Positions 1,219-49,212 are shown, numbered from the stretch's first letter. The stretch: DNA of 52,089 nucleotides from a virus (IMGVR_UViG_3300041407_000207:1-52089), one strand, 5' to 3'. Made by a program: numbers and translations. Notes: generated by a model not told the origin, from the sequence alone.

Positions 1219-1542
1219 CTAGTCACGTTTGACTAATTTACGCCTAGGACCGTCATCTTCGCCTGCGATTACACGAGGAATCATACACCAAAACAATGGG
1301 TCTACGATATATCCGCTATCTGCTATGTATTTCCCACCAAGGTAATACCCGGTAGATATCATTTCTTTATCCATGACCAACCAGACATGCATACCTGGCT
1401 TTGGTGGATTATTTGCAGAATTTACGAAAACTGCTTTATGAAGAATCTCTGTAACTTTGATTACTTGAGTATTCAAATAGTCAACTTGTTTGGAGAGATG
1501 ATCCATGCCATCTCGATAACCTTGCTCATATTCTGGAGTCAT
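1219..1542 (-). CDS. hypothetical phage protein, DUF551-like C-terminal half
   Basis: Pattern PPKPGMHVWLV...GYY...W.MIP resembles DUF551 phage proteins; start overlaps the thyX stop. Confidence 0.45.
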   Translation of the reverse strand: MTPEYEQGYRDGMDHLSKQVDYLNTQVIKVTEILHKAVFVNSANNPPKPGMHVWLVMDKEMISTGYYLGGKYIADSGYIVDPLFWCMIPRVIAGEDDGPRRKLVKRD

Positions 1543-2225
1543 GAGATTTCACCTAGAACATGCTTTTTGAAAGCTGCCAAAGTAACCGGGATGTACGGCT
1601 TGATAAGTTCCAAGATGGCCTTGGCATATACCTGGATTTCATATTGAGAATGAGCGTGGTCGCGAAGACGCAAGAACCCAAACAGGTTATGGAGATCGAC
1701 CGTACCGAAGAAGTGAGTGTAGATATTCATAGGCAGGACGCCGCGAGCAATCTCTCGGGGAACTCCACGGGCAATCAAGGTAAGGTACATTTTGTACGCT
1801 ACTTCGTTTGCATTGGCGATAAGACTGAGAGTTTCTGCTTCGTGTTCAGGATCGATGTCTACTAGATCCCGCATCTGCTTGTTGTCTTTATTCTGAACAC
1901 CTAGCAGTCCTTTTTCAGGAACGTACATCTCATCTGGAAGAACCGAATACCGAGCAGAGACTTCACTGTAACCCCAAGCACGGTGACGCATCCATTGACG
2001 GGCAACGAACATCGGGCACTTTACTTCGAAGGTGAACTGAACAGATTCTAGAGGACTTGTGTGATGATTTTTTACGAGGTAGTTGATTAGTCGAGTATCG
2101 CTTCCTTCGTCTTCCCCGGCACGCCAATCAGCGTCATAGCTAACTCGGGCGTTTCGAACTACCGAGAGATCAGAACCCATGTGATCAATCAAACGAATGA
2201 ACCCGTGGTCAAGTAACTTAATCAA
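1539..2225 (-). CDS. thyX: FAD-dependent thymidylate synthase ThyX
   Basis: ThyX signature ARQWMRHR...SEVSARY, H.SPLE.V.FTF, and LHNL.GFL.LR...HSQYEI. Confidence 0.96.
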   Translation of the reverse strand: MIKLLDHGFIRLIDHMGSDLSVVRNARVSYDADWRAGEDEGSDTRLINYLVKNHHTSPLESVQFTFEVKCPMFVARQWMRHRAWGYSEVSARYSVLPDEMYVPEKGLLGVQNKDNKQMRDLVDIDPEHEAETLSLIANANEVAYKMYLTLIARGVPREIARGVLPMNIYTHFFGTVDLHNLFGFLRLRDHAHSQYEIQVYAKAILELIKPYIPVTLAAFKKHVLGEIS

Positions 2226-10089: not shown

Positions 10090-10139
10090 AGCGCTCCCTC
10101 CCCAAATACAACATACGCAAATACTTCTTCCCAATACTC

Positions 10140-10146
10140 TTATACC
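10140..10146 (-). promoter_or_regulatory. class E promoter motif GGTATAAG
   Basis: TTATACC, intergenic, back-to-back with the class L site at 10188. Confidence 0.65.
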
Positions 10147-10187
10147 GTGATATTGCTCTTGCTATTGAATCGGTAATCCTATTCCGT

Positions 10188-10193
10188 TAAAAT
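10188..10193 (+). promoter_or_regulatory. class L promoter hexamer (CGT)TAAAAT
   Basis: Upstream of the portal/RNAP unit. Confidence 0.55.
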
Positions 10194-10222: not shown

Positions 10223-11962
10223 ATGACCGATTACCTAAGCCCATCCTTTGGGAACACTCAAAACTTTGGACAGACGCCTAGTCCGTGGTTTACTGTTGCC
10301 AATCAATTCCTACCTAGGAATTTGCACGACGTTATCCGTTGGTCGAAATACATCACCACTCAATCTCCGACTACCACGGAAGTAATTCGCAAGCTTTCTT
10401 CGTACCCAATTACTTCTTTTGAGGTGGACTCGAAAGAACAGACCACCGTTGATAAATACAAAGAAGTATTCAAACTCCTAAGTCTTCGTCAAAATCTTCA
10501 AGAGATTGGTTTTGGCTACCATACCCTGGGCAACGTATTCATCTCCATCTACTACCCGATTACTCGAGTGTTGAGATGCAGAAGTTGTAAGACTGATTAT
10601 CCGGTTCGTAAGGCTCATTGGGTTTCGTTTAAGAAATACGAATTTCATGGGACCTGCCCTCATTGCAACCACAATGGGACACTGGAACGTATTGATAGAA
10701 AGTCCTTTGACATCAAGGACATGAACATCATCCAGTGGGATGCTTTGAACATGGTTGTGAATAACAACCCGATCACTGGTCGTTCAGAATACTACTACGC
10801 TATTCCTAACGAAGTTCGTCGCAAGATCACTATGGGAGACATGCTATTCCTGTCATCTACCCCATGGTCTTTCGTAGAAGCTGTTCGGCTGAATCAAGAT
10901 TACAAGTTCGATGATGATGGCATTTATCACCTAAAAGCCCCATCTCTTACTACACACAGCTTGAACGGTATTGCCGTACCTCCGCTGATTTCATTGTTCG
11001 GGTTGGTGTTTTACCAGCAGACTTTGCGTAAGGCTAACGAGTCTATCGCCACCGAGTTCCTGAGCCCGCTTCGAGTAGTTTATCCAGCACCTAGCGGTTC
11101 TAATGATCCTTCGGTGACCATGAGCCTTAGTAATTTCAAAGGCAGAATGGAGGCAGCTCTACGGAAGCACAAGCGAGACAATGCTCATGTACTGGTAGCT
11201 CCAGGCCCGATTGGTTACGGAACCATCTCAGGCGAAGGTCGAGCTCTTCTAGTCAACCAAGAAATTCAACAAGCAGAAGAAACTATGCTTTTGAGTTTGG
11301 GCGTATCGAAAGAGCTTTTGAGCGGAACTACTAACTGGACTTCCTCAACAGTAGGCCTTCGACTTCTCGAGAACAATATGTCCTCGTACGTAGCTCAGAT
11401 GGATACTTTGCTAGAATGGATGTTCGGAAAGATTGCTCAGTACCTAAGTCTTGAAGACTGTAAGGTAAGTCTGAAAGAGTTCAAGCTGATCGATGACACT
11501 ACCATGCAGCAGATGTTTGCGAACCTCGCAAGTGCTGGCAAGATGTCCATGACTAAGCTCTTCGAAAGCTTCGGTGAAGATTATGCCGAGGAAGAGGAGA
11601 ATATGAAACGTGAAGCAATCAATACAGCAGTACGCCAAGTTGAAGTCGCTATCGAATCGGAAACTGCGAAAACAACTGCAGCCCGTAAAGCTTCCACTAG
11701 GAACTCGGAAACGTCTTCCGAACAAGCTGATTTCGTACGTAGCAGTATTACTCAAGCTATGGAGTATATGTCTATGGACCCTGCTGAGGTTGAGCTACAG
11801 CTTCAACTGATGGATGCAGAAGATCCAGCCATGTCTCTCCAGATTCGTAAAATCTTGGCTGCACTACAAGAAGCCACTGCACAGGCCGTTGCTGCTGCAA
11901 ACGGTGAAACTGCACAACCAGGCCAGGAACAACCGGCAGAACCTAAGGCGACCCAAGCATGA
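10223..11962 (+). CDS. probable portal protein with Zn-ribbon insertion
   Basis: Portal-like layout (GNVFI, IYHLK, GIAVPPL...LRKANESIA, EETMLLSLGVSKELL) and size; CRSC...CPHC insert. Confidence 0.65.
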   Translation: MTDYLSPSFGNTQNFGQTPSPWFTVANQFLPRNLHDVIRWSKYITTQSPTTTEVIRKLSSYPITSFEVDSKEQTTVDKYKEVFKLLSLRQNLQEIGFGYHTLGNVFISIYYPITRVLRCRSCKTDYPVRKAHWVSFKKYEFHGTCPHCNHNGTLERIDRKSFDIKDMNIIQWDALNMVVNNNPITGRSEYYYAIPNEVRRKITMGDMLFLSSTPWSFVEAVRLNQDYKFDDDGIYHLKAPSLTTHSLNGIAVPPLISLFGLVFYQQTLRKANESIATEFLSPLRVVYPAPSGSNDPSVTMSLSNFKGRMEAALRKHKRDNAHVLVAPGPIGYGTISGEGRALLVNQEIQQAEETMLLSLGVSKELLSGTTNWTSSTVGLRLLENNMSSYVAQMDTLLEWMFGKIAQYLSLEDCKVSLKEFKLIDDTTMQQMFANLASAGKMSMTKLFESFGEDYAEEEENMKREAINTAVRQVEVAIESETAKTTAARKASTRNSETSSEQADFVRSSITQAMEYMSMDPAEVELQLQLMDAEDPAMSLQIRKILAALQEATAQAVAAANGETAQPGQEQPAEPKATQA

Positions 11963-12237
11963 ACGAAAAGGGAATGAATAAGCAGAAGGGCCAAGAGGGG
12001 AGTGCCAGCATGCCTGGTATTCTCCCGGCTGCTGCGGAAGACAATAACTACATTGCAGATAACTATACGGTTAAATATTTCCGTGGTGATCTGGATGAGC
12101 CTGGCGATCTTCTTGAGCTCCAGAGAGTTGAGACCGTAGGTCTAAAGGGTGATGAAATCGTTCTGTGTGATCGCCAGACGTATTCATTCGAGGGACGCTT
12201 CTTTGTCGTTCTTCGTTATTTCCAAAAACGAATCTAA
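11959..12237 (+). CDS. hypothetical protein
   Basis: Coupled between portal and RNAP genes. Confidence 0.7.
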   Translation: MNEKGMNKQKGQEGSASMPGILPAAAEDNNYIADNYTVKYFRGDLDEPGDLLELQRVETVGLKGDEIVLCDRQTYSFEGRFFVVLRYFQKRI

Positions 12238-12240
12238 CCA

Positions 12241-15200
12241 ATGCCTAATACTCCGTACCCAATTTTCTCAGATCCAAAGTCTATCAACGAGAAGGCAGAC
12301 AAAGCGCTGGTGAAAGGTCTCACCTCGCATTTCCCAATCGAGAACAAGCATTACTCTTTGCAAATTGACGACGTGCATGTTGACCGTAAAGAATTCGATC
12401 AGAAAGATGAAAAGGAGGCGATTCTCAAATCCAAATCGCTGACCTACCCTATTCGTGGGACTCTTTCTCTGATCCACAAAGCAAGTGGTAATGTTGTGGA
12501 CCGGGAAAAGGATTTCCCACTTATGGACTCGTTCTTCCTTACCGGGAAACATACGATGCTCTATAAGGGTAACAACTACATTGTCGCAAACCAGCTCCAG
12601 TTGAGTCCGGGAGTATTTACTCGGACCAAAGAAAACGGTGAACTAGAAGCCCACTTCAACACTCAGAAAGGTCGTAGCTTCTCGCTGACTCTGGACCCGG
12701 AACATGAGTTGATCTATCTCAACGCAGATAAGTCTACATCTCGAGTGCTGGTAGCCCCGATCTTCACTGCGATCTTCAACATCTCTAGTAAGGAAGTTCT
12801 AAAGTACATCCCTGCAGAGCTGTGGGAAAGAAACGTCCAGGCTGCTCAAGGTCAAGAACAGAAAGCAATCAAGGCTCTCTACGGTCAACTTACTTCGAAA
12901 TATAAACAGGATAAAACCCTGTCTTACGAAGATATGATCGTTGCTTTGAGAGAGGCTTTCAACGGATCTACTCTGTCGGCTAAATCGACTGAGATTACTC
13001 TTGGTAAACCTTTTGAAAACATCACTCATGAAACGCTTCTCCGTGCGATGGCAAATATGGTTGCTGTACGTCGTGGTGACCGAGAAGAAGATAACCGAGA
13101 CTCGCTTCAGTTCAAGCGTGTGCAGAACCTTCCCGACTTCCTGGCTCGTCGTTTCGAAGCAGGTCGTGAACACGAATCCGTATCCAAAGTTAAAAGCAAA
13201 CTGACTTTCAACCTCGAACGCGTAGATCATACCAATCCGAAGATTCGTCAAGTAATTCCGTCTAAGCCTTTCAACAAGGTTTATCAGAACTACATCCTCG
13301 AATCGACTCTGGTGTCTACTCCGGAAGAAACCAATGCTATCGAATCAATTGAGAACGTGGGTAAGGTCACTGTACTCGGAGCTCAGGAAGGCGGTATCGC
13401 AAGCATTCGTGCTGTTCCTAAGTCCGCTCGTAACATTGATGCGTCTCACACAGGTATTCTTGACCCTAGCCGGACGCCTGAGTCTGATCATGCTGGTGTT
13501 GACCTTCGTTTTACTATTTCTGCTCATCGCGATGATTACGGAACTCTTTACTCGACAGTGGTCGATAATGCAGGGAAGAAGCATGTAATGTCCGTTCATG
13601 ACCTTATGACTTCAGTAGTGGGATTCCCTCACCAAGAAGATAAGGCTCGAGTTCAGGCCCAGGATCATGGTGTCCTCTCAGAAGTAGAACGTAGCAAAGT
13701 TCAGTACTGGTTCCAGAGTGGTAACAGCCTCTACACCGTAACCACCAACCTAGTACCGTTCCTGAACAGTAACCATCCAGGTCGTCTGACCATGGCCGGT
13801 AAGGCTATTCCTCAGGCACTGTCTCTGGTAGACCGCGAAGCCCCCTTGGTTCAGACCGTAACTTCTCCTAGCGGTGTTTCGTTTGTAAAATCGATTGCTC
13901 AGGTGTTCAGCACTAAGTCTCCAGTAGACGGTGTAGTTAAGAAAATCACTCCTACCGAAGTCCATATCGAGACCGCAGCTGGCACTACTCATAAGGTCAA
14001 TCTGGTTAAGAACCTTCCGTTCAACATGAAAGGTTTCCTTGATGATGAAGCCCCTCATGTAAAAGTAGGAGAGACTGTCAAGAAAGGACAAATGGTTGCG
14101 GAGAACAACTACACCAAAGACGGCGTTCTAGCCCTAGGCAAGAACCTTGAAGTGGCGTATATCCCCTACAAAGGCTTTAACCACGAAGACGGATTGGTCA
14201 TTTCCGAAGGTGCAGCTGCAGGACTTTCTAGTCACCACGCCTACAAGATTGACTACAACATCATGGATTATTCAGTGCTTCGTAAGTCGCTACTGAAACG
14301 TTATTTCCCAGGCAAGTTCACGGTTGATCAACTTTCTCAGCTAGATGAACTTGGCGTAGCCCAAGTGGGTGCCATTCTAAAACATGGCGACCCGGTATAT
14401 GCTGTACTTGAAAAAAGAGAACCTACCGCTGAAGATCGTATGCTGGGGCGTTTGCACAAAACACTCGTCAATCCTTACCGCGTCAATGCAGATACTTGGG
14501 GTTATGATGACCCTGCTGAGGTAGTAGACCGCCACGTTGATGGCAAAGAGATTCGTGTGATTCTTCGGGCGGTTAAGAAGCTTGAAGTCGGAGATAAGCT
14601 GACAGGTTCCCACGGTAACAAAGGTATCGTCTCGTTGATTCTTCCAGATGAAAAAATGCCTTACAACAAAGAAACTGGCAAGCCATATGATCTCCTGTTG
14701 AACCCGGCCTCTGTAACTAGCCGTGTAAACCTCGGCCAGCTAATGGAAACTGCTGCGGCGAAAATTGCTAAGAAGACTGGTACCCCGTACTTGGTACAAA
14801 ACTTCTCCAAGAAGTCTAACGTACAAAATCTCAGTGACGAGTTGAAGTCCCACGGCCTCAGCGACACCGACGTAGTGTTCGATCCAGACAATGGTAAGAC
14901 TTATCCTAAAGTCCTGGCCGGACCTCAGTACATGATGAAGCTGTACAAGACTACCGACCAAAACTTGTCTGCTCGTAACGTAGGCGGATACGACAACGTA
15001 CTTCAGCCTACCAAAGGTGGACATGAAGGTTCGAAGTCTATTGGTTACATGGAGTTCTTGGGTCTGCTTGGTTCTGACGCACGTCACAACCTTCAAGAAA
15101 TCGGTACTTCGAAATCCGAAGAGAACTCAGAGTACTGGACTAAGTTCTTGAGGGGCCAACCGCTTCCTAAGCCTAACACCACGTTTGCAACCAAGAAGTT

Positions 15201-15600
15201 CATTGACTATCTGCATGGCGCAGGAGTTAAGGTTACTCAGAGCGATACCCATATCACTGCTAGTCCTCTGATGGACCACGACATTCTCGGCATGAGCAAC
15301 GGAGAGATCAAAACTCCAGATATGATTGCTGCGAAGAACTTGGAGCCAGAAGATGGTGGTTTGTTCGACATGAGTGTTACTGGTGGTATTCGTGGACAGA
15401 AATGGGGCCACTACAAACTGGCTGAACCTGTCGTTAACCCTGTTTTTGAAGGTGCTGTAAAACACCTTACTGGTCTCACTTCTTCTGAGTTTGATAAACT
15501 CACTACAGGTGAATACGGACTTAAGAAAGTAGGAGATAAGGAATTCCACATCGTTACTCATGGCGATGACAGTAAAGTAATCAAAAAGGTGACGATGTGA
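12241..15600 (+). CDS. rpoB: phage multisubunit RNA polymerase beta subunit fused to beta' N-terminal segment
   Basis: NQLQLSPGVF, HTGILDPSRTPES, LALGKNLEVAYIPYKGFNHED, GDKLTGSHGNKG, NPASVTSRVNLGQ, GYMEFLGL; the C-terminal SNGEIKTP...GGLFD...WGHYKLAEP matches the start of RpoC. Confidence 0.93.
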   Translation: MPNTPYPIFSDPKSINEKADKALVKGLTSHFPIENKHYSLQIDDVHVDRKEFDQKDEKEAILKSKSLTYPIRGTLSLIHKASGNVVDREKDFPLMDSFFLTGKHTMLYKGNNYIVANQLQLSPGVFTRTKENGELEAHFNTQKGRSFSLTLDPEHELIYLNADKSTSRVLVAPIFTAIFNISSKEVLKYIPAELWERNVQAAQGQEQKAIKALYGQLTSKYKQDKTLSYEDMIVALREAFNGSTLSAKSTEITLGKPFENITHETLLRAMANMVAVRRGDREEDNRDSLQFKRVQNLPDFLARRFEAGREHESVSKVKSKLTFNLERVDHTNPKIRQVIPSKPFNKVYQNYILESTLVSTPEETNAIESIENVGKVTVLGAQEGGIASIRAVPKSARNIDASHTGILDPSRTPESDHAGVDLRFTISAHRDDYGTLYSTVVDNAGKKHVMSVHDLMTSVVGFPHQEDKARVQAQDHGVLSEVERSKVQYWFQSGNSLYTVTTNLVPFLNSNHPGRLTMAGKAIPQALSLVDREAPLVQTVTSPSGVSFVKSIAQVFSTKSPVDGVVKKITPTEVHIETAAGTTHKVNLVKNLPFNMKGFLDDEAPHVKVGETVKKGQMVAENNYTKDGVLALGKNLEVAYIPYKGFNHEDGLVISEGAAAGLSSHHAYKIDYNIMDYSVLRKSLLKRYFPGKFTVDQLSQLDELGVAQVGAILKHGDPVYAVLEKREPTAEDRMLGRLHKTLVNPYRVNADTWGYDDPAEVVDRHVDGKEIRVILRAVKKLEVGDKLTGSHGNKGIVSLILPDEKMPYNKETGKPYDLLLNPASVTSRVNLGQLMETAAAKIAKKTGTPYLVQNFSKKSNVQNLSDELKSHGLSDTDVVFDPDNGKTYPKVLAGPQYMMKLYKTTDQNLSARNVGGYDNVLQPTKGGHEGSKSIGYMEFLGLLGSDARHNLQEIGTSKSEENSEYWTKFLRGQPLPKPNTTFATKKFIDYLHGAGVKVTQSDTHITASPLMDHDILGMSNGEIKTPDMIAAKNLEPEDGGLFDMSVTGGIRGQKWGHYKLAEPVVNPVFEGAVKHLTGLTSSEFDKLTTGEYGLKKVGDKEFHIVTHGDDSKVIKKVTM

Positions 15601-16739
15601 CCGAACCAGTATTGGTAGGGGGAGCGGCTTTCGAAGCGCTCCTCGGAGCCATCGACGTAAATCAGAGTCTCAAGGATCATTCCCAAGAGGCTATCCATGC
15701 TACGTCTGTGGCTAAAAGAGACAAGGCCATTAAGAAGATCAAGTATCTTGCTGGTCTTCAGAAAATGGGTACTACCCCAGATAAAGCCTATGTGATTCGT
15801 AACGTTCCAGTAGTCCCACCGATTACTCGACCCGTTATGATTCAGGGGGGTGGACGTTTAGAATTCAGTGACGTAAACCAACTTTACCGAGATCACATGC
15901 TTGTGAATAACAGCATGAAAGAGTTGAAAGGTGTTTTGCCTGACGAAGCTTTGATCGGTGAACGCCGTGAAATGTATAACGGTTTGAAAGCAGTAGTCGG
16001 AGTAGGTGACCCTATCTCAGGTGCTTCTCGTGGCCGGAATCTCAAAGGTCTTTTGGTTCAGATCGCAGGCTCAGGCTCTCCAAAAGGAGGTCTGTTCCAC
16101 AGCAAGATCCTTAGCAAGAAGCAAGACTTCTCCGGTCGAGGTACTATCTACGCAGAGCCACGTCTAGGCTTCAACGAGATGGCTATCCCGCGAGATACTC
16201 TGTGGTCCATGTACAAGTTCCATATCATTCGTGACATGGCTCGACAAGGTCACTCTTACATCAATGCGGAGAAGGCTTACAACGATAGGAACGATTCTGC
16301 TACCGCGTCTTTTGGCAAGATCATCAAGGAAGTACCGATCCTCGCTAACCGTAACCCTACGCTCATGAAGTCGAACATCTCTGGATTCTTCCCGGTTCCA
16401 GTAGAAGGTAACTCCATCGGGGTAAACCCGTTGCACCTTCCGATGTTCGCAGGGGACTACGACGGTGACGCATTGTCCCTGTTTCTGCCTATGGGCCCGG
16501 CTGCGGTGAAAGAAGCTAGAGAGAAGCTCATGCCATCTAAACAGATTTACGACGCCCGTATGGGCTTTGGGGAGTCTCTGATAGCACCTGGTCACGAAGC
16601 CATTCTCGGTTCCGTTCACCTAACTGAGCCTGACAAAGATAAAAAGCCTCAGCACTTCGAATCTGAAGCACACGTTCTCCAAGCTCTCAAAGACGGTACG
16701 GTCGATGAGAATACTCCGATCACCATCGGTGCTAGGTAA
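15597..16739 (+). CDS. rpoC: RNA polymerase beta' middle piece carrying the catalytic Asp triad
   Basis: VPVVPPITRP, KKQDFSGRGTI, NRNPTL, FAGDYDGD (NADFDGD equivalent) at 16446-16469. Confidence 0.93.
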   Translation: MTEPVLVGGAAFEALLGAIDVNQSLKDHSQEAIHATSVAKRDKAIKKIKYLAGLQKMGTTPDKAYVIRNVPVVPPITRPVMIQGGGRLEFSDVNQLYRDHMLVNNSMKELKGVLPDEALIGERREMYNGLKAVVGVGDPISGASRGRNLKGLLVQIAGSGSPKGGLFHSKILSKKQDFSGRGTIYAEPRLGFNEMAIPRDTLWSMYKFHIIRDMARQGHSYINAEKAYNDRNDSATASFGKIIKEVPILANRNPTLMKSNISGFFPVPVEGNSIGVNPLHLPMFAGDYDGDALSLFLPMGPAAVKEAREKLMPSKQIYDARMGFGESLIAPGHEAILGSVHLTEPDKDKKPQHFESEAHVLQALKDGTVDENTPITIGAR

Positions 16740-16742
16740 ACT

Positions 16743-16774
16743 AAAAAAGCCCCTTTGATTAGGGGCTTTCTTTT
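16743..16774. terminator. bidirectional intrinsic terminator
   Basis: AAAAAAGCCCC-loop-GGGGCTTTCTTTT between convergent genes. Confidence 0.8.
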
Positions 16775-16784
16775 GATGCGTACT

Positions 16785-17345
16785 TTAGTTCAGATCGTTC
16801 CGAACTTTACAAAGTGCATCTTCAACAACTTTCTTTGAGAACTCGTTGATGCTTTCGCGATCTGGAACTTGATCGGGGTGCAACGCCAAACTCATTTTCT
16901 CCATGAAGTTTGGCAGAAGGCCGTCTTCAGAGATCATGCGCATCAAAGCACCTTTGCCGAACTTCAGGTCCATGGCGCCTTCAAGCTCTACTTTGCGTTT
17001 CAGGTTCTGCTGAAGGGCTTCGATCAGTTCTGGACTCAGATTATCAAAGTCGTCAAACTTGCCTTCGCTGAATGCAGCTGTGAAAGCGTTCATGGCGGCA
17101 ATCGTATCCTCCAAATTTGCGGACTCCATCTCTGTGGCAGCAGTCTTCTGGAACCGCTCCATGATGCGATAGCCACGGGCAGAGAGCACGACCAGCTCAT
17201 CCAGGATAGAGGTCAGATTACGATCAGAGCCTTTTTCCATTTCTACCATTGTGCAACCATGCAGATCACGAAGCTCAGGATGCATCTCAGCAATTTCAGA
17301 CAGCATTGTCAGGCAAGCGTTTTGCAGTACTGGAGAAATGTTCAT
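16785..17345 (-). CDS. hypothetical protein (acidic, helical)
   Basis: Own class E motif, AAGGA RBS, terminator. Confidence 0.75.
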   Translation of the reverse strand: MNISPVLQNACLTMLSEIAEMHPELRDLHGCTMVEMEKGSDRNLTSILDELVVLSARGYRIMERFQKTAATEMESANLEDTIAAMNAFTAAFSEGKFDDFDNLSPELIEALQQNLKRKVELEGAMDLKFGKGALMRMISEDGLLPNFMEKMSLALHPDQVPDRESINEFSKKVVEDALCKVRNDLN

Positions 17346-17401
17346 ATCAAAGGTCCTTTTAGGTATTTAGAATGTGAAGATATTGTTCTTCTCTACTATT
17401 C

Positions 17402-17408
17402 TTATACC
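17402..17408 (-). promoter_or_regulatory. class E promoter motif GGTATAAG
   Basis: TTATACC, intergenic. Confidence 0.7.
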
Positions 17409-17468
17409 GGTAACGAACCTACCGAATTGAAACTAAAAAGCCAGGACCGAAGTCGAGGCTTTTAGGTG

Positions 17469-17840
17469 TTACTTGAAAGAATTTATTCGCGGAAGAAGGA
17501 TTGAGTACTTACCCCACAAAGGAGACTCAGACATATCCTTCATGTCTGCATACTTTTTAGCCAAGGCTTGAGTGACCATTGAGCATTTATCCAGTCTAGA
17601 CAGTCGAACTATTTTATCCAGATCAACTATTTCATCAGGAGTGAGAGTACTTAGATCACCCAGAGTTTTCATTAGGAACTCTTGCCAAATAGTCATGGTG
17701 CGGAAAGACTCTTCCGAACTGACGGAATCATTCAAATCTTTCATGAAAAGCCCGACAATTCTATTGAGGGTGTCTTCTTCCTCTAGAAGTCTACGGAAGA
17801 AACCAGCAGCAGCCTCATCAACCTTCACAGAATAAGTCAT
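17469..17840 (-). CDS. hypothetical protein
   Basis: Start reassigned to ATG at 17840 (MTYSVK) behind AAGGA; the track start at 17912 lies upstream of the promoter motif. Confidence 0.7.
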   Translation of the reverse strand: MTYSVKVDEAAAGFFRRLLEEEDTLNRIVGLFMKDLNDSVSSEESFRTMTIWQEFLMKTLGDLSTLTPDEIVDLDKIVRLSRLDKCSMVTQALAKKYADMKDMSESPLWGKYSILLPRINSFK

Positions 17841-17896
17841 TTTGAAATCCTTGTAGTATTTATGAACAATAGATGTATTGTTCTTTTCTACTATTC

Positions 17897-17903
17897 TTAT
17901 ACC
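17897..17903 (-). promoter_or_regulatory. class E promoter motif GGTATAAG
   Basis: TTATACC. Confidence 0.7.
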
Positions 17904-17960
17904 TGGAACCACCTCTCTAAATTTAAAAAGAAAGGCCCTAGAATCAGGACCTTACTATTA

Positions 17961-18341
17961 CTACAGAGGAGCAAGACCTCGGATCAGGACTGGACCCGTA
18001 GGTATCTCCAAAGGCTTCTCTTCCAGAGAACGCATATGCTCGTAGCATTCATGCTTGAGAATAGTCTCGATACTGAAACCCTTCAACTTCCCCAACAACG
18101 CATCATCAAGGATGTCCATTGATTTTTCATCAAGCAACGGAATCCGATCTGCGATAGGCTCCATGCGGAACTTGTTGAATTCTTCGCAGAGACGCATTAC
18201 TTCGTCAGCATTATTTCGAGGTTTTGTAAGAACAACCTGGAAATTACCGACGAACTCACGAAGACGAATTCGGTTGTTCAGCATGAACGTGAAGTATTCA
18301 CTGGCAAGAGTTTCGAGGTATTCAGCAGTATGGTCCGTCAT
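17961..18341 (-). CDS. hypothetical protein
   Basis: 126 aa, follows 18350..18850 by 8 nt. Confidence 0.7.
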   Translation of the reverse strand: MTDHTAEYLETLASEYFTFMLNNRIRLREFVGNFQVVLTKPRNNADEVMRLCEEFNKFRMEPIADRIPLLDEKSMDILDDALLGKLKGFSIETILKHECYEHMRSLEEKPLEIPTGPVLIRGLAPL

Positions 18342-18349
18342 AGCAATGT

Positions 18350-18850
18350 TTATTCCTGAGTTACGAGAGGGACTTCCGGAGTATGTTGCAGTGCTGCCAT
18401 TAGCGCCTGCGTCTCGTCTCGCTCGTTGATGAGAGAAGAGAGTTCATCGAGCAGATCCAGTTTCTTGATGCAGGACATCATCGGATCTGGTCCGAACAGA
18501 GAAATCATTTCAGCTTCCGTACCGGTGCTCATGTGAGACAGATGATCCGAAACAAGTTCTTTGATATCATCTGGAACTTCCGTCTGAACACCTGAAAGAA
18601 TGTCATACAGATACTGAGGCTTGTTGTTCTCATCCTCCCAGTTCACTGCGAGAAAGGCTTCCGCGATCATCGCCGCTGATTTCTCAGAAGACTCGATAAT
18701 CATTGGGAAAAGATTTCGAACAGCACTGACGGGGTCTTCGTCGGACATAGCCACCATGAACGTAGAGTTCAGGGAGTCCATGCTTCCTCGAGTTGTTTTC
18801 AGATTTTCGAGGAGGGTTTTTGCCGCCAGCAACAAATCGGAAGTAAGCAT
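18350..18850 (-). CDS. hypothetical protein (acidic)
   Basis: 166 aa ORF downstream of the class E motif at 18914. Confidence 0.7.
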   Translation of the reverse strand: MLTSDLLLAAKTLLENLKTTRGSMDSLNSTFMVAMSDEDPVSAVRNLFPMIIESSEKSAAMIAEAFLAVNWEDENNKPQYLYDILSGVQTEVPDDIKELVSDHLSHMSTGTEAEMISLFGPDPMMSCIKKLDLLDELSSLINERDETQALMAALQHTPEVPLVTQE

Positions 18851-18913
18851 AGGGTCTAGACCTTTAAGTATTTTTGGTTTTAAACAAGGGGTGCGATTCC
18901 CCTTACATAGTAC

Positions 18914-18920
18914 TTATACC
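18914..18920 (-). promoter_or_regulatory. class E promoter motif GGTATAAG
   Basis: TTATACC, intergenic. Confidence 0.7.
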
Positions 18921-18973
18921 GTTCTGACCTTTGCGAATGTAAAAAAGGCCCCAGAAGAATAGGGGCCTATTTG

Positions 18974-19417
18974 TCATACTCTAATTTCACCATCTCGCAC
19001 AACTCCAACCATGGTCAACGTCTCGTCCCTTATAGCTCCTGAATTAATCAGAATCTCGTTTATATTTTCAACTGCGTTTCTTAGCGAAGGCAAGGATCTC
19101 ATGTAGTCCATGTCGAGAACCATTAACTCTAATTTTGCTTTCGTAATATCCGGATGTTTTATAGGAGCTTGATTCTGGATAGTCTGAGCAAATTCTTGCA
19201 AGCTCTTGTACTGGAGCTTCAGTATCGAGTTTGTTATCAAGTACGACTCTATTACGGTAAGGTACTTCTTTGATATTGCTGAGTAAGTATCCGGAGTTGC
19301 TTCGTCCAACTCTTTTCGGATATCCATTACCTCCTTCATTTTCTCATGAAGAATTGTGTAGTCAGCGATGGTAGCTCTTAACAGAGCTCCAAGTTTTGCA
19401 ATATTTACAAGATCCAT
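18974..19417 (-). CDS. hypothetical coiled-coil protein
   Basis: Start reassigned to ATG at 19417 (MDLVNIAK) behind GAGGGAG. Confidence 0.7.
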   Translation of the reverse strand: MDLVNIAKLGALLRATIADYTILHEKMKEVMDIRKELDEATPDTYSAISKKYLTVIESYLITNSILKLQYKSLQEFAQTIQNQAPIKHPDITKAKLELMVLDMDYMRSLPSLRNAVENINEILINSGAIRDETLTMVGVVRDGEIRV

Positions 19418-19482
19418 TTTTCTCCCTCGATGTGCGTAAGATACGGCGTCTGGTGGACTCCGTGACTTTGTATACATAATAC

Positions 19483-19489
19483 TTATACC
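19483..19489 (-). promoter_or_regulatory. class E promoter motif GGTATAAG
   Basis: TTATACC, intergenic. Confidence 0.7.
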
Positions 19490-19534
19490 CGGTTAACTAC
19501 TTGACTTTTATAAGCATACAGTTAACCTCTGCGA

Positions 19535-20860
19535 ATGGATCATTCTGAATTTGAAACAAAGTCCATTCTCAGACATGGGCACCGGTACGACTACTCTCGA
19601 GTTCAGATTACGAATAATCGGACCAAGGTAGAGATTGTCTGTCAAAAACACGGTCCGTTTCTACAGGCCCCTGACCATCATATGAGAGGTCGGGGATGTC
19701 CAATTTGTTCGCGAGAATCACGAGTGTGGAGTAAGCCTTTGACTTCTGAAGAGTTCTTTACTAAGGCAACTGAAATCCACAAAGGTTTCTATGACTACTC
19801 TTCCTCTGTATTTAAAACTTCTTCCCATAAGATAAGCATAGTTTGCGCCATCCATGGAGAATTCTCTACTTTGGCCAGAAAGCATCTTCATGAAAAAAGA
19901 GGATGTCCTTCTTGTGGTAAGGTGAAAACTCGATATGCACAAAGCGTAATGTATCAGGACTTCTTTGATAGAGCCGTAGACAGACATGGCTTGGCATATT
20001 CCTATGCGGATACTTCGCTTAGATTCCTCTCAGATGATATCGACGTAGTCTGCCCCTCTCACGGCCCCTTTACGTTAGTGGCCTCAGATCATGTTCATGG
20101 CCGTGGATGTCCGAAGTGTAGACCTCAAGGATCTTGCCCGGAAAATGAGTTGGCTGACTTTATTCATAATCTAGGATTCGATATCGTAAGGAATACTAGG
20201 AAGGTGATACCGCCACTCGAGCTAGACGTCGTTTTGCCGAGAGAACGAATTGCGTTTGAGTTTAATGGTATTTTCTGGCATTCAGAGCAGGCCGGGAAGG
20301 CATTTCAGTACCATCAGAATAAAACCTTGATGGCTCAACGTTCTGGATACCGACTGTTCCATGTTTATGAATCCGATTGGGATATAAATAGAAACTCAGT
20401 TGAAGAGAAGATCTGCAGAATTCTGTCTAGAACTCCTTGCCCAACCCTAACCGGTGCCTACCCAATAGAGGAATACAACGGAGACTACCATTTGATTCTT
20501 CGTGGAAATCCCATTGCAGGATTCCGAGTGAAGGATCGTATCGCCAAAGATTCTTGGAGCATGTACGGGCTAGAGCCAATACGAATGCTACTAACCATGT
20601 CAGGAATAGATAAGATACAGACAAGTCTTGACTGGCCAGAGTACACCCTGGAGGATTTTGATAAGTTCGGATTTAAGAAGTATATGAACGTCAGACCTGG
20701 ACGTCTCTACTTCGACAAGAAAACCCTGAGAAGACTAAAAGAAAAGCCCAGAGAGTATCCGGGCTTAGAATTTCTTTCAGTGGTGGACTCTGGGGCCATC
20801 ATTTGGGATGTAGTCCAGAATCGGATTGAACAAGACGTAGTTCATGACGTTACCGATTGA
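19535..20860 (+). CDS. putative homing endonuclease: three C-x2-HG...GCP-x-C zinc repeats plus PD-(D/E)xK (Vsr/DUF559-like) nuclease domain
   Basis: Repeats YDYS...I.C..HG.F...H..G.GCP.C (x3); LELDVVLP...AFEFNGIFWH...YHQNK...GYRLFHVYESDW. Confidence 0.8.
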   Translation: MDHSEFETKSILRHGHRYDYSRVQITNNRTKVEIVCQKHGPFLQAPDHHMRGRGCPICSRESRVWSKPLTSEEFFTKATEIHKGFYDYSSSVFKTSSHKISIVCAIHGEFSTLARKHLHEKRGCPSCGKVKTRYAQSVMYQDFFDRAVDRHGLAYSYADTSLRFLSDDIDVVCPSHGPFTLVASDHVHGRGCPKCRPQGSCPENELADFIHNLGFDIVRNTRKVIPPLELDVVLPRERIAFEFNGIFWHSEQAGKAFQYHQNKTLMAQRSGYRLFHVYESDWDINRNSVEEKICRILSRTPCPTLTGAYPIEEYNGDYHLILRGNPIAGFRVKDRIAKDSWSMYGLEPIRMLLTMSGIDKIQTSLDWPEYTLEDFDKFGFKKYMNVRPGRLYFDKKTLRRLKEKPREYPGLEFLSVVDSGAIIWDVVQNRIEQDVVHDVTD

Positions 20861-21190
20861 GCTCTTACTGTTGTCACCTAGTTCCTGATCGATGAACTCC
20901 AGGAGAACAGCATTCCGGGTTACGATCATCAACGGATCTTCGGGACTCAACTTGTAGTCATACCCGAGTTCAATAGCGTTGCTCATCGAGAACGACGCTA
21001 GATTCCTCAGGGATTTAATCTCATCCCACAACGCTGTTACTTGTAGATCACAACCCTCAACATCTTCAGGGTAGATCCTTGTTCCTTCCCGGTGAGCATC
21101 CAACTCGTTTTTCATTTCTTCTACAGCGGCTTCTACACAGCGCTGCATGGTGAGCCCGGATCTACCTGCAGGTAATGAGAATTGCAACAT
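20777..21190 (-). CDS. hypothetical protein
   Basis: AAGGAG RBS and class E motif; 3' end overlaps the endonuclease 3' end by 84 bp. Confidence 0.65.
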   Translation of the reverse strand: MLQFSLPAGRSGLTMQRCVEAAVEEMKNELDAHREGTRIYPEDVEGCDLQVTALWDEIKSLRNLASFSMSNAIELGYDYKLSPEDPLMIVTRNAVLLEFIDQELGDNSKSSIGNVMNYVLFNPILDYIPNDGPRVHH

Positions 21191-21221
21191 GGCGTAAGCT
21201 CCTTCTGGCTATCTACCTATC

Positions 21222-21228
21222 TTATACC
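21222..21228 (-). promoter_or_regulatory. class E promoter motif GGTATAAG
   Basis: TTATACC, intergenic. Confidence 0.7.
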
Positions 21229-21282
21229 ACACCGCATTCGCCTAAAAGAGAGGGCCACCACCCCCTCTTTCATTGCGACCCC

Positions 21283-21531
21283 TTACGAGGTTGCAGTTTC
21301 TTTTACGGAAGCCACCGAACCACGCAGGATGTCGATCTCTTCTTTCAAAGCAGCCTTGGCCGCTTCTTCACCCTTTTTCACGCCCTTGCGATTGCCGAGC
21401 AGATAGCCCAGGCCTGCGCCAATAGCGAGCATTGCACCGCCTACCGCGAACGCAATGGTATTGCTGTTGGTGTTTTTAGCAGCAGCTTCTTCGATTGCGG
21501 CAACTGCGGTCAGGTCTTGTTCAGCGATCAT
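21283..21531 (-). CDS. small single-pass membrane protein (paralogue set)
   Basis: IAFAVGGAMLAIGAGLGYLLG helix; GGAG RBS. Confidence 0.7.
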   Translation of the reverse strand: MIAEQDLTAVAAIEEAAAKNTNSNTIAFAVGGAMLAIGAGLGYLLGNRKGVKKGEEAAKAALKEEIDILRGSVASVKETATS

Positions 21532-21562
21532 GATGAATCTCCAGGTATTAGTTTTTTGAGAA

Positions 21563-21778
21563 TTACGGTTGAGTGTTGCGACGGTTGTCCCGTTCTCGTG
21601 AACGGGTATTTGGGGAACGCCTTTCTACTTGAAGATCCCGAGCACTTTTAAGAGACGCTTTGGTCCAGCCAACTGCGAATCCCAAACCGATCAGTGCTCC
21701 TCCGATCAGTGCGTACAGGGTGCCCTCACCGGCACTCATAGGAGTGCTCGATTCCAGATGTTCTAACGGAGCTTTCAT
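21563..21778 (-). CDS. small single-pass membrane protein (paralogue set)
   Basis: LYALIGGALIGLGFAVGW helix; GGAGG RBS. Confidence 0.65.
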   Translation of the reverse strand: MKAPLEHLESSTPMSAGEGTLYALIGGALIGLGFAVGWTKASLKSARDLQVERRSPNTRSRERDNRRNTQP

Positions 21779-21817
21779 TGGGAACCCTCCTACAAGTGTG
21801 TGCCTATCTCAATTTAG

Positions 21818-21824
21818 TTATACC
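21818..21824 (-). promoter_or_regulatory. class E promoter motif GGTATAAC
   Basis: TTATACC, intergenic. Confidence 0.65.
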
Positions 21825-21876
21825 CAAGCTGAGATAGCGAATTGAGAGGGCCCTTGGGGAATCGGGCCCTATGGTG

Positions 21877-22089
21877 TTACTTTGCAACAGGTTGACGTTT
21901 TGCACGTTCCATCTTTGCAGCTGCTTCACCCTTGGCACCCAGGATGAAACCTACGCCTGCACCGATGGCCATGAACGCCGCGCCGATTAAGAATGCTGCA
22001 CCGGCATAATTGCCAGCAGCTTCGGACCGAGTTTCAGGACCTTGGTGATGGTGATACGTTACGTGGTCAGCACGAATTGGTGAATCCAT
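21877..22089 (-). CDS. small single-pass membrane protein (paralogue set)
   Basis: NYAGAAFLIGAAFMAIGAGVGFILG; start reassigned to ATG at 22089 behind AAGGA. Confidence 0.65.
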   Translation of the reverse strand: MDSPIRADHVTYHHHQGPETRSEAAGNYAGAAFLIGAAFMAIGAGVGFILGAKGEAAAKMERAKRQPVAK

Positions 22090-22150
22090 GACAGTATTCC
22101 TTGGGAAGGAGTGGGGGAAGTAGTTCAAACAGTTTTCTTCTGCACTACTC

Positions 22151-22157
22151 TTATACC
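22151..22157 (-). promoter_or_regulatory. class E promoter motif GGTATAAG overlapping the upstream stop codon
   Basis: The TAA in the motif is the stop of 22151..22714. Confidence 0.7.
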
Positions 22158-22714
22158 GGTTTTACTGGTTCAGAATTGACAATTTCATCAACGGTAATGA
22201 GGTTTACACCGCCTTTGATGTGGAGAGCAGTTTTAGATTTGATCTTTATGTTCTCCAAACCCATGAACATTTCCTGGGTCATCGTGGAAGGCCTTTCGAC
22301 CAAGAAGTTTTCCGGGATTGCAGACCCGACCTTTACTTCTTCTTTATACGACTTTTTGACGTAGTAGTACTTCGTCTCTTTCGACGTGACTTGATCGACG
22401 ACTGCACCCTTGCTTCCAAGGATGTCGCTCATCGTACGCTTCAAGTCTTCGATGGTGGACTCGACAACATTTTCTGTGGAATTTCCTGCAGGGCTTTTAC
22501 CGGCAGACTTCCGCAACTTGTCGAGCAGGTCATCCGTGAAATTGGATGTCGAAGCAGGCTTACGCAGTTTGCGGATTGATTCAGAGATCATCCCTGCGCC
22601 AATGCCCACACAGAGAACTGCCATACCAACTAGGAAGGCAGCCCCGGCGTAGTTTTTGAAAGCTTCGGACGTCGTTTCATTGGCGTCCATTACGTGAATA
22701 GTTTCTACTACCAT
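22151..22714 (-). CDS. membrane-anchored hypothetical protein (paralogue set)
   Basis: NYAGAAFLVGMAVLCVGIGAGMI helix then a soluble domain; start reassigned to ATG at 22714 behind GAGGAG. Confidence 0.7.
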   Translation of the reverse strand: MVVETIHVMDANETTSEAFKNYAGAAFLVGMAVLCVGIGAGMISESIRKLRKPASTSNFTDDLLDKLRKSAGKSPAGNSTENVVESTIEDLKRTMSDILGSKGAVVDQVTSKETKYYYVKKSYKEEVKVGSAIPENFLVERPSTMTQEMFMGLENIKIKSKTALHIKGGVNLITVDEIVNSEPVKPV

Positions 22715-22770
22715 GAGGTGTCTCCTCGGAGATGTAAGATAGTTCATATAGGGTTTACATTACACAGTAC

Positions 22771-22777
22771 TTATACC
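22771..22777 (-). promoter_or_regulatory. class E promoter motif GGTATAAG
   Basis: TTATACC, intergenic, back-to-back with the class L site at 22808. Confidence 0.7.
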
Positions 22778-22807
22778 CGAACCATACGGCCCCTATTGAC
22801 CCTCAGT

Positions 22808-22813
22808 TAAAAT
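22808..22813 (+). promoter_or_regulatory. class L promoter hexamer (GT)TAAAAT
   Basis: Upstream of the beta' C-terminal gene. Confidence 0.55.
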
Positions 22814-22854
22814 CCCCAGATACCTAACTCACTACTACCAGGCCGATACCTTTC

Positions 22855-24675
22855 ATGGCAGACACTAAATACACCACTCCCGGATCAGTAATGATCAAGC
22901 ACATGCTTCCTATCGGAGCTCGGGAAAAGTACGACCTTCACCGCGTCCTGGATAAGGGTGGAGTTCAAGGTCTAATTCAATTGCTCATCAAGAACGAAGG
23001 ATCGGACTTTGAAGTCATCAATGACCTTGCACGTCTGTTCTTCGGTAAGGCTACGGAGATCGGTGCATCAACTCCGCTGTCTGACTATATAAACGATTCC
23101 TCAGAACGAGCCGCTCTGCTTGGAGAATTCGAGCACAAAGTATCAGAAATTCTAAAAAGCAAAGTTTCAACTCAAGAAAAGTCAAACGAATTGAGTAACT
23201 TGGCTGCGGATATGTCTGGAAAGATCAGTAAGCAAAACATCAACTACCTTGCTGAACGTGGATCTACTGCTGCGAAGATGGCTCAGACGGGAGCTCGGGG
23301 TAACCCTTCCCAACTTGCTTGGGGTACATCGTCTCCCCTCATGGCTGCTGACGTACGAGGTATGCCGGTACCAATCGCGGTAATGCACTCCTTTGCGGAA
23401 GGTCTTACTCCCGGCGAATACCTCGCCATGTCATACGCTGGACGAGCCTCCACAGTAGCCGCACAGCTCTCTACCTCCCTACCCGGTGCCCTGTTTAAGA
23501 AGTTGACTCCGAACCTCTACCATGAGGTTATTACGGTCCCTGACTGCGGTACTCACAACGGTATCCTAATCCCATCGACTGATAAAAAAGCACTCGTTGG
23601 TAGATTCGAAGCCGGAACTAATCGGTTCATTGATGAAGCATACCAACGAGAGCTAGAAGAGTCCCATAAACAGGTCAAGGTACGAAGCACTCTTACTTGT
23701 GAAGCTAAGAAAGGTGTTTGTCAGAAATGCTACGGCCAAGCTTCAGACGGCAAGCTGGTAACCATCGGTACCAACGTAGGCGTAATTGCTTCACAGTCGG
23801 TATCGGAACGTCTCACTCAGGCGATGCTAGGTACTAAGCACTCCGGGGGTGTTGCAGGTAAAAAGCGAAATGCTTATGAAGAAGCAAACAACCTCCTGTT
23901 GAACCCATCCGATAACTTCCAAGACGAAGCCACTATTTCAAAATTGAATGGCAAAGTTACTGACATTCGACAGACTGCCCTGAAGGATCACGAGGTTTAC
24001 ATCAACGGTGTTAGCCACTTCGTGAGTCGTGAACAAGACCTTTCGGTTAAGAAAGGTGATGACGTTCTGTCCGGAGGAGTAATGTCCACCGGTACAGTTA
24101 ACCCTCGTAAACTCGTTGCTCTTCAAGGAGTTGGTGCAGGCCGTCTGTACATGGCTAAGAAACTTCGAGATATCTACGGCTCAGGTCTAGATACTCGTCA
24201 CTTCGATTTGATTGCCCGCAACATGATCAAATACGTCAAGGTTAACGATCCGGGCGATACCGGGTTCATGCCGGGACAAGAGGTTGACATCAACGCTATT
24301 CAGCATCACTTGAAGAATAGCAGTGAAACAGTCCCGATATCCTCTGCGGCGGGTCGTACTCTTTCACACGGTATCTTGGAAGAAACTCCAGGAACTTACC
24401 TGACGCAGAACCACGTTGATAGCTTGGCTCTGAGAGGCATCTCTTCCGTGAAAGTAAGTAACTCTGGACTAAAGGTAACCCCGATGGTTCCAGGTCTTCA
24501 GTCTGCAAAACTTCTCGATCCTAACTGGCTATCCAAACTTGCATTCAACAAGATTAGACAGACGATTCAGGAATCCGGAGCTATCGGTGCTTCTTCTGAA
24601 ATTCACGGCACGGACCCTATTACTCCGTATGTACTGGGTCGAGATTTTGGCCAAGGTAACCCTGGAGAATACTAA
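22855..24675 (+). CDS. rpoC: RNA polymerase beta' C-terminal piece (bridge helix, trigger loop)
   Basis: TGARGN, SFAEGLTPGEY, DCGT, VRSTLTCEAKKGVCQKCYG, VGVIASQSVSERLTQAMLGTKHSGG, RHFDLIARNM. Confidence 0.92.
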   Translation: MADTKYTTPGSVMIKHMLPIGAREKYDLHRVLDKGGVQGLIQLLIKNEGSDFEVINDLARLFFGKATEIGASTPLSDYINDSSERAALLGEFEHKVSEILKSKVSTQEKSNELSNLAADMSGKISKQNINYLAERGSTAAKMAQTGARGNPSQLAWGTSSPLMAADVRGMPVPIAVMHSFAEGLTPGEYLAMSYAGRASTVAAQLSTSLPGALFKKLTPNLYHEVITVPDCGTHNGILIPSTDKKALVGRFEAGTNRFIDEAYQRELEESHKQVKVRSTLTCEAKKGVCQKCYGQASDGKLVTIGTNVGVIASQSVSERLTQAMLGTKHSGGVAGKKRNAYEEANNLLLNPSDNFQDEATISKLNGKVTDIRQTALKDHEVYINGVSHFVSREQDLSVKKGDDVLSGGVMSTGTVNPRKLVALQGVGAGRLYMAKKLRDIYGSGLDTRHFDLIARNMIKYVKVNDPGDTGFMPGQEVDINAIQHHLKNSSETVPISSAAGRTLSHGILEETPGTYLTQNHVDSLALRGISSVKVSNSGLKVTPMVPGLQSAKLLDPNWLSKLAFNKIRQTIQESGAIGASSEIHGTDPITPYVLGRDFGQGNPGEY

Positions 24676-49136: not shown

Positions 49137-49165
49137 CTCCTGAGCGTGGTTTTACATCATACTTC

Positions 49166-49172
49166 TTATACC
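49166..49172 (-). promoter_or_regulatory. class E promoter motif GGTATAAG
   Basis: TTATACC, back-to-back with the class L site at 49207. Confidence 0.65.
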
Positions 49173-49206
49173 CAAACGGCAAGTCTGAGATGGACGGGGC
49201 TACCGT

Positions 49207-49212
49207 TAAAAT
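49207..49212 (+). promoter_or_regulatory. class L hexamer (CGT)TAAAAT, 6 nt before ATG
   Basis: TAAAAT-actcag-ATG, no RBS. Confidence 0.6.

Follow-up and report, generated by a model that had tools for sequence, protein, structure and literature searches.

We analyzed the stretch IMGVR_UViG_3300041407_000207:1-52089 (52,089 nt, hereafter the window), which is the first 52 kb of a linear IMG/VR viral contig of 116,089 bp that CheckV rates as 65% complete. Judged from the proteins they encode, three open reading frames (ORFs) on its plus strand, P0001, P0002 and P0003, are together the complete catalytic core, ~2,105 residues in all, of a phage-borne RNA polymerase (RNAP) of the bacterial type. 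The first ORF joins the beta subunit to the N-terminal part of beta' (beta-beta'N), the second carries the middle of beta' and the third its C-terminal part, so that beta' is cut at two places, which we call site 1 and site 2. The parts of the enzyme are encoded as follows.

12241..15249, plus strand: beta module of piece 1, residues 1 to ~1003 (Pfam Rpb2_6 and alignment to E. coli beta)
15250..15600, plus strand: clamp segment from the N-terminus of beta', lacking the Zn-binding domain (E. coli beta' ~25-175; alignment); in frame with beta, ends at site 1
15597..16739, plus strand: piece 2, the middle of beta', with clamp helices, catalytic double-psi beta-barrel and DYDGD (Pfam and alignment)
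22855..24675, plus strand: piece 3, the C-terminal part of beta', with TTPG, bridge helix, trigger loop, second Zn site and C-terminal clamp (Pfam and PDB alignments)

P0001 (1119 aa) matches the Pfam model Rpb2_6 with an E value of 2e-53 and, weakly, Rpb1_1 at residues 1009-1047. Its beta alignment covers E. coli beta 420-1341, with beta residue 1341 of 1342 at P0001 ~1002, and in the pairwise comparison E. coli beta' residue 25 falls at P0001 1007. In the alignment to E. coli rpoB/rpoC the beta/beta' junction falls at nt ~15247-15260 and consists of 3-4 joining residues, in agreement with a first-pass annotation of the window, which had described this ORF as a full beta running into the beta' N-terminus at ~15250. 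About 20 residues at the start of beta' are left out of the fusion, and P0001 also lacks the Cys4 Zn-binding domain (beta' residues 64-95) in the E. coli alignment; ~115 residues of beta' are retained in this piece. In the window's family, R678, E813, D814, K1065 and K1073 of beta are all kept, K1065 and K1073 being the active-site lysines, and H1237 is changed to Lys. P0001 ends near E. coli beta' 175, which is site 1.

P0002 (380 aa; Pfam Rpb1_1 and Rpb1_2) covers E. coli beta' 180-532, and its end lies in the linker beyond the catalytic barrel. As stated at first pass, it starts at the GAEAI-equivalent and holds the catalytic loop: its residue 7 corresponds to beta' 180 (MGAEAI), DYDGD occupies residues 287-291, and beta' D460, D462 and D464 are invariant across 69 phage and 58 bacterial rows. 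In Thermus, residue 7 of P0002 aligns to beta' 456, where a lineage-specific insert of ~280 residues is located, and site 1 therefore coincides with the place of the Thermus insert. P0003 (606 aa; Pfam Rpb1_5, E value 2e-20, and Rpb1_4) opens with 6 residues that precede TTPG (E. coli beta' ~570) and keeps C814, C888, C895 and C898 of the second Zn site as well as the trigger-loop His936; alignments to PDB structures and this residue check bear out the earlier description of the ORF as starting at TT(P/I)G and holding the bridge helix, the trigger loop and a Zn site. All lineage-specific inserts are absent from the window enzyme.

The break at 15597 could be considered a mere frameshift, whether by sequencing error, as a pseudogene or by a programmed -1 shift, in which case the true product would be a protein of ~1,500 aa like that of phage Arash. 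Indeed, a single continuous ORF crosses this point in Arash, in Vibrio phages including D69, and in the metagenomic loci L016 and L110, and an A5G run (AAAAAG, 15583-15588) lies 9 nt before the P0001 stop with the downstream frame open across the run. However, the GTG start of P0002 overlaps the TGA of P0001 (GTGA) and has AAGGTG 5 nt upstream, which is the form of a normal coupled junction. Fifteen close IMG/VR loci also speak against a frameshift, and the same break was found in L005/L111, L007-L014, L017-L019, L108, L109 and L187. Altogether at least 13 independent metagenomic relatives are cut there, with junctions ranging from a 4-nt overlap to a 3.6-kb gap; an assembly error, which the first-pass annotation had named as a possible refutation of its claim, does not agree with this recurrence. 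The relative with 86-88% identity (L005/L111) has the same stop/start overlap, L007-L012 have gaps of 230-290 nt at the same residue position, and L013 and L017-L019 have 0.7-3.6 kb with other ORFs at the site, while L006 has the middle piece without any beta gene upstream. Seven relatives in the tree described below, together with L007-L012 and L017-L019, are thus cut at the same residue, mostly with gaps of 230 nt-3.6 kb that sometimes contain ORFs, and the three-piece forms make one clade in FastTree. We regard a frameshift as very improbable, and a programmed -1 shift at AAAAAG in particular was rejected because of the long intergenic gaps in relatives. A homing endonuclease as the cause of the site-1 break is not supported by the ORFs found there: of ten ORFs, which lie either within the gap at site 1 in L013 and L017-L019 or directly 3' of the L013 middle piece, none matched an endonuclease family, and only weak DnaJ, collagen and glycine-zipper matches were obtained.

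Next we compared the layout with that of other phage enzymes. From two profile-guided scans of IMG/VR and one of 185,579 species genomes we obtained another 158 loci from viruses, in which some contigs appear twice, and 80 from bacteria. A non-redundant set of 99 phage loci with full coverage was then classified: 74 have beta and beta' in a single chain of ~2,020-2,200 aa (typically ~2,050), 12 are cut at site 2 only (Arash type), 7 at both sites (window type), and the remaining 6 have other cuts; beta is separate from beta' in just 2. Since the single chain is found in 74 of these loci, the three-piece form in 7, and all of the phage enzymes examined in trees fall in one clade, the data suggest that the three-piece layout is a derived, rare variant and that the beta-beta'N join is a remnant of the complete fusion usual in the clade. 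Some individual layouts deserve mention. In L198 and L201 the cut is within beta at ~750-790, and the remainder is continuous with the whole of beta'; in L166, cuts at the beta/beta' junction and site 2 give three genes in a layout like that of cyanobacteria; L155 has beta in three short frames. In two Acidobacteriota loci, L100 and L107, the frame over beta' is open for 2,700-2,800 aa.

When P0002 was searched exhaustively against 1.84 billion cluster representatives, 1,180 matches were obtained at E <= 1e-30, the best 150 of which are each closer than any bacterial beta' found among the 80 bacterial loci. Of these best 150, 71 are N pieces of the Arash type, 33 are single chains and 2 are middle pieces standing alone; 3 extend from site 1 to the end, one of them starting at a contig edge, and 41 are fragments or have other layouts. 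They show that genes beginning at the first fission point are also present in more distant lineages. In one such distant relative (L272/L273, 8001-11971) a beta' gene of 977 aa runs from site 1 to the end, comprising the middle and C-terminal parts; 2 nt further on comes a sigma gene (344 aa, regions 2 and 4), and no beta is encoded within 8 kb upstream.

Trees were made from concatenated beta and beta' with FastTree (LG+G; 128 sequences x 1915 columns after trimming) and with IQ-TREE (LG+C20 PMSF; 32 sequences x 622 columns), both with one Mollivirus-like giant virus (RPB2 and RPB1) as outgroup. All 69 phage enzymes formed a clade (support 1.0 in FastTree and 100 in IQ-TREE), as did 57 bacteria together with one misfiled viral contig (0.947 and 94), the 20 split forms, that is, 12 of Arash type, 7 three-piece forms and L166 (0.997 and 90), and the 11-member family of the window (1.0 and 100). 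The 7 three-piece forms were grouped in FastTree (0.98) and not resolved in IQ-TREE (64). On the FastTree topology site 1 changes state once and site 2 twice. The beta-beta' fusion, common to 67 of the 69 phage enzymes, is like the domain loss a character independent of the tree: the Zn-binding domain is lost in 69/69 phage enzymes and in 0/58 bacterial rows, where its columns are Cys in 57-58 of the 58. Taking the bacteria as the reference state, the order is one beta-beta' fusion at the base of the phage clade, followed by a fission past the catalytic barrel (site 2), common to the window, Arash and Vibrio phage D69, and then by a second fission at beta' ~176-179 (site 1) in the window's subclade. 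A contig filed as viral, L175 (IMGVR_UViG_3300029491_000146), has an ordinary two-gene rpoB/rpoC that falls inside Bacillota and is probably bacterial DNA.

The deep position could also arise by another route, in which a host rpoBC was captured recently and diverged fast, so that the lineage belongs inside a bacterial group and its placement is a long-branch artefact. All branches of the phage clade are long, with a stem of 0.83 (FastTree) or 1.43 (C20 model) substitutions per site, and the outgroup is one sequence only; with a single long giant-virus outgroup and a long phage stem, long-branch attraction could put the phage clade outside Bacteria artificially, and its placement there may be inflated. 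However, the best 80 bacterial matches all have 27-32% identity and come from many phyla with none preferred, and the clade nests in none of the sampled bacterial phyla, which was the phylogenetic check proposed at first pass. Bacteria are monophyletic under the site-heterogeneous model (support 94), the two characters described above separate the phage enzymes from the 58 bacterial rows, all of which keep the domain, and the only fused bacterial row is an unrelated Paceibacterota genome. We consider a recent capture improbable. The first-pass view of a non-phiKZ, bacterial-type phage RNAP in three pieces agrees with both the domain content and the trees, and we hold the identity of the enzyme and its origin by fusion and subsequent fissions, as proposed above, to be highly probable.

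The second break is occupied in the window by a block of several kilobases:

16785..22747, mixed strands: block inserted at site 2, 6.1 kb (ORF calls and PHROG HNH match)

The block holds six small minus-strand ORFs behind the motif GGTATAAG, a gene for an HNH homing endonuclease (19535-20860, plus strand; PHROG E value 2e-52) and one further plus-strand ORF, and GGTATAAG sites in or near it are located at 17401, 17896, 18913, 19482, 21221, 22150 and 22770. At the DNA level, L111, the relative with 88% identity, shares only the HNH gene of this block (69% identity). In relatives the gap at site 2 ranges from 0 to 7.5 kb, and the smallest split, in L014 (7144-7152), consists of TAA, one codon and ATG in the same frame. 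The first-pass annotation had called the break points non-canonical. This holds for the fusion and the first break, but the second is only partly so, because it lies 17-20 residues from the cyanobacterial rpoC1/rpoC2 site. As in cyanobacteria and plastids, beta' is divided in the linker beyond the catalytic barrel; the cyanobacterial break, however, comes after TTVGR, whereas the window-type C piece opens with TT(V/P)GR. Specifically, the cyanobacterial gamma (Prochlorococcus and a Synechococcaceae genome) ends 15 residues past TTVGR, the phage C pieces start 2-7 residues ahead of TT(V/P)GR, and phage site 2 is thus 17-20 residues N-terminal of the cyanobacterial break. The tree points to an origin independent of cyanobacteria, so that site 2 would be a convergent cut in the same linker rather than a new location. 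A jumbo-phage review likewise puts the beta' split of phiKZ and AR9 at the cyanobacterial site past the double-psi beta-barrel.

The closest described enzymes are those of Arash (gp206, 1525 aa, and gp216; PMC10585845) and of the Vibrio phages D69 (1527 and 609 aa), D148 and D181, with 45-55% identity over all three pieces. These phages have the same beta-beta'N fusion and the same break past the catalytic barrel, belong to a common clade with the window (support 1.0), and have sigma genes. The order of portal, small ORF and RNAP genes is annotated in Arash, and genes of the same size stand in the same order, unannotated, in D69. The difference is that their first gene runs on through the catalytic barrel, whereas the window adds the cut at site 1. 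The Arash and Vibrio records label these genes as beta subunit or hypothetical and do not mention the fusion. In Vibrio phage D181 (L003, 13519-14467), and also in D148, the beta part is interrupted between the equivalents of P0001 residues 510 and 511 by ~0.9 kb with a homing endonuclease, perhaps as an intron or as a recent division of the gene; no such interruption is present in the sister phage D69.

The RNAPs of the phiKZ/AR9 type (PMC7598289, PMC7824862) resemble the window enzyme in that they are phage beta/beta' enzymes without alpha or omega, have beta' cut just past the barrel, and have one set packaged for early transcription. They differ in having beta in 2-3 pieces, two paralogous sets, far greater divergence, and gp68 or gp226 instead of a factor of the sigma-70 family. 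In the contig of the window, beta is intact and fused to beta'N, a single Rpb2_6 match is present in the 116 kb, and a sigma-like gene exists. Two jumbo-phage papers treat phiKZ-type enzymes only and state that those phages lack sigma.

The first-pass annotation assigned the enzyme to a non-phiKZ phage lineage with deeply branching RNAP reported from metagenomes; membership in the published mReC lineage is no more than possible. The clade of the window has the same deep position as the mReC enzymes (Weinheimer and Aylward 2020, PMC7481178), the bacterial-like beta/beta' of metagenomic tailed phages of ~100-300 kb that branch outside cellular clades, and some samples are common to both (3300017989, 3300018080). 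In the mReC table (PMC7481178), beta and beta' are distinct proteins, of about 1000-1490 aa and about 890-1300 aa respectively, and the main text uses "fusion" and "split" once each, both about crAssphage. None of the contigs of the fetched relatives is on the mReC list as far as that list was compared, none of their metagenome IDs was found in the supplements, and in two wider IMG/VR scans no locus had genes of the published sizes. Protein sizes similar to those of mReC would result if the enzyme were cut at site 1 alone, into beta-beta'N and a 977-aa product with the middle and C-terminal parts. In the literature searched, neither the fusion nor the break points nor the absence of the Zn-binding domain was described.

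Fusion of beta to beta' is by itself not confined to phages. The beta-beta' fusions of Helicobacter and Wolbachia have full beta' with the Zn-binding domain kept, and still use alpha and omega. In these, as in a 2,284-aa fusion of a Paceibacterota metagenome-assembled genome (L098) that nests among candidate-phyla-radiation bacteria in the tree, the end of beta continues in frame into the start of beta' as in the phage enzymes. Unlike the Helicobacter/Wolbachia type, the phage fusion has lost the Zn-binding domain and ~20 residues at the beginning of beta', and it arose separately. To our knowledge, no natural RNAP has a cut at site 1 or a retained beta-beta'N join.

How such a core would be assembled and directed to promoters depends on its partners. 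No alpha, omega or sigma model of Pfam matched in the window or the 116-kb contig; PF01000 and PF01192 found nothing at E <= 1, either in the contig or in Arash, D69 and two complete relatives of 165-170 kb; the controls were matched in 14 of 14 genomes. The earlier statement that alpha, omega and sigma are not recognisable in the window is thus right for the window, but for the genome it does not hold as to sigma, since a sigma-like gene is present at contig 70,909-71,604, 19 kb beyond the window. Its product is a homologue of Arash gp10 (41% identity) and gives weak but consistent matches to the structures of SigA, RpoS and FliA. The gp10-type query alone found it; with Arash gp196 and the D69 sigma proteins as queries, no sigma match was obtained in the contig. 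Sigma70_r2 genes exist in all four relatives searched (the two complete relatives, Arash and D69). In the mechanism we propose, the pieces would reassemble non-covalently, the covalent link of beta to beta'N would stand in for the alpha dimer as assembly platform, and promoter choice would come from phage proteins of the sigma-70 family, one encoded 19 kb downstream and two in relatives. Going by these gene contents, it is fairly likely that the enzyme depends on sigma.

Two motifs resembling promoters are distributed by strand in the window. GTTAAAAT occurs in 6 copies, all on the plus strand, compared with 1.9 expected, and none of 100 shuffles reached 6; the motif of these 6 sites can be written cGTTAAAAT. 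GGTATAAG occurs in 15 copies, all on the minus strand, compared with 1.0 expected, and heads small minus-strand ORFs; it shows no conservation at -35, often comes directly after a hairpin and T-run, and resembles an extended -10 element of the TGnTATAAT type. Back-to-back pairs of the two motifs are found at 10139-10193, 22770-22813 and 49165-49212. Around the RNAP genes the features are as follows.

10186..10193, plus strand: GTTAAAAT, late-type promoter-like motif, 37 nt 5' of the portal gene; heads the unit of portal gene, 92-aa ORF, beta and beta' middle piece
10223-11962, plus strand: portal gene (PHROG portal match)
11959-12237, plus strand: conserved 92-aa ORF, between the portal and beta genes with tight spacing
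22806..22813, plus strand: GTTAAAAT, late-type motif, 42 nt 5' of piece 3

The copy of GTTAAAAT at 10186 thus heads the portal-beta operon and a separate copy at 22806 heads the C-terminal part of beta'; both RNAP units follow this motif, and the first-pass placement of the RNAP genes behind late-type sites among structural genes is right. We would expect late expression of the RNAP genes, along with the portal gene, from GTTAAAAT sites.

The first-pass annotation had suggested a virion-packaged enzyme that reads the class E promoters. We likewise propose that the enzyme would be loaded into virions with a sigma and, once in the next host, would initiate transcription of the minus-strand genes of the GGTATAAG class. 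In the virion proteome of Arash (PMC10585845), gp206 is the top protein with 3516 spectra, gp216 is fifth with 1210, and the sigma protein gp10 has 467 spectra; a sigma is detected there at full (100%) coverage. The same counts can be explained differently if the enzyme is not a virion component but is made during infection for late GTTAAAAT genes, with the host RNAP reading GGTATAAG and the detection in Arash being due to carry-over. The likeness of GGTATAAG to an extended -10 element agrees with this, as do the many metabolic enzymes among the Arash virion proteins, for which the authors raise contamination (PMC10585845), and an N-terminal tag, MxNxYLEKxA, that opens four plus-strand ORFs of the window (32824, 33650, 36050 and 41649) and not the RNAP pieces. 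On the other side, the RNAP genes themselves are behind the late-type motif in the portal operon, and therefore an enzyme that reads late genes would be made by its own product; furthermore, no protein of the Arash particles is detected more strongly than gp206, and a sigma is fully covered there (PMC10585845). Such an enzyme acting only in infection seems to us unlikely, though far from negligible. For virion packaging and the early-gene role, which by analogy with Arash may apply to the window enzyme, we have a slight leaning and not more, because the Arash spectra are high and yet the virion list is long with possible carry-over, and the tag is absent.

Taken as a whole, the explanation that combines a phage core enzyme, a fusion followed by fissions, sigma, late expression and packaging is quite probable in our judgment. 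Besides the rooting on a single outgroup, several points weigh against it. The trigger-loop Arg933 is not conserved in the window's family, divergent analogues of alpha and omega would escape Pfam, and the position of the fused L016 within the window's family is unresolved in the reduced-column IQ-TREE (support 64). The host polymerase could read the early class, given the likeness of GGTATAAG to an extended -10 element. The Arash virion list (PMC10585845) contains 116 proteins including ribonucleotide reductases, and its authors allow for carry-over from the lysate; the MxNxYLEKxA tag, missing from the RNAP pieces, is also missing from Arash gp206.

Beyond the window itself, we tentatively put forward, with rather more doubt than belief, that the clade is an undescribed class of minimal bacterial-type RNAP, with an ancestral chain of ~2,050 residues, no alpha, omega or Zn-binding domain, and phage sigma-70 factors, packaged in the virion with sigma and thereby the first sigma-dependent virion RNAP, in which the three-piece form marks fission points at beta' ~176-179 and ~552-567. 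If this is true, the enzyme would be a compact self-assembling RNAP of ~2,100 residues, compared with ~2,700 for bacterial beta and beta' alone, that works without alpha and omega. The series from fused to two-piece to three-piece forms would show which cuts are tolerated and the course of gene fission, whose stages would extend from a stop, one codon and a start (L014) to kilobases of inserted early genes with a homing endonuclease. The transcription strategy would stand between known types, being packaged as in phiKZ or N4 and sigma-dependent as in cells.

As for the rest of the window, megablast of the RNAP region against the phage collection gave no match, and PF07068 (T4-like major capsid protein, a mark of the mReC phages) had no Pfam match among ten downstream ORFs, so that the capsid family was not identified by this search. 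The window also encodes a ThyX thymidylate synthase (1539-2225, minus strand), a SNF2-family helicase (5179-6942, minus strand) and a protein with a LigD-type 3'-phosphoesterase domain (49219-50649, plus strand).

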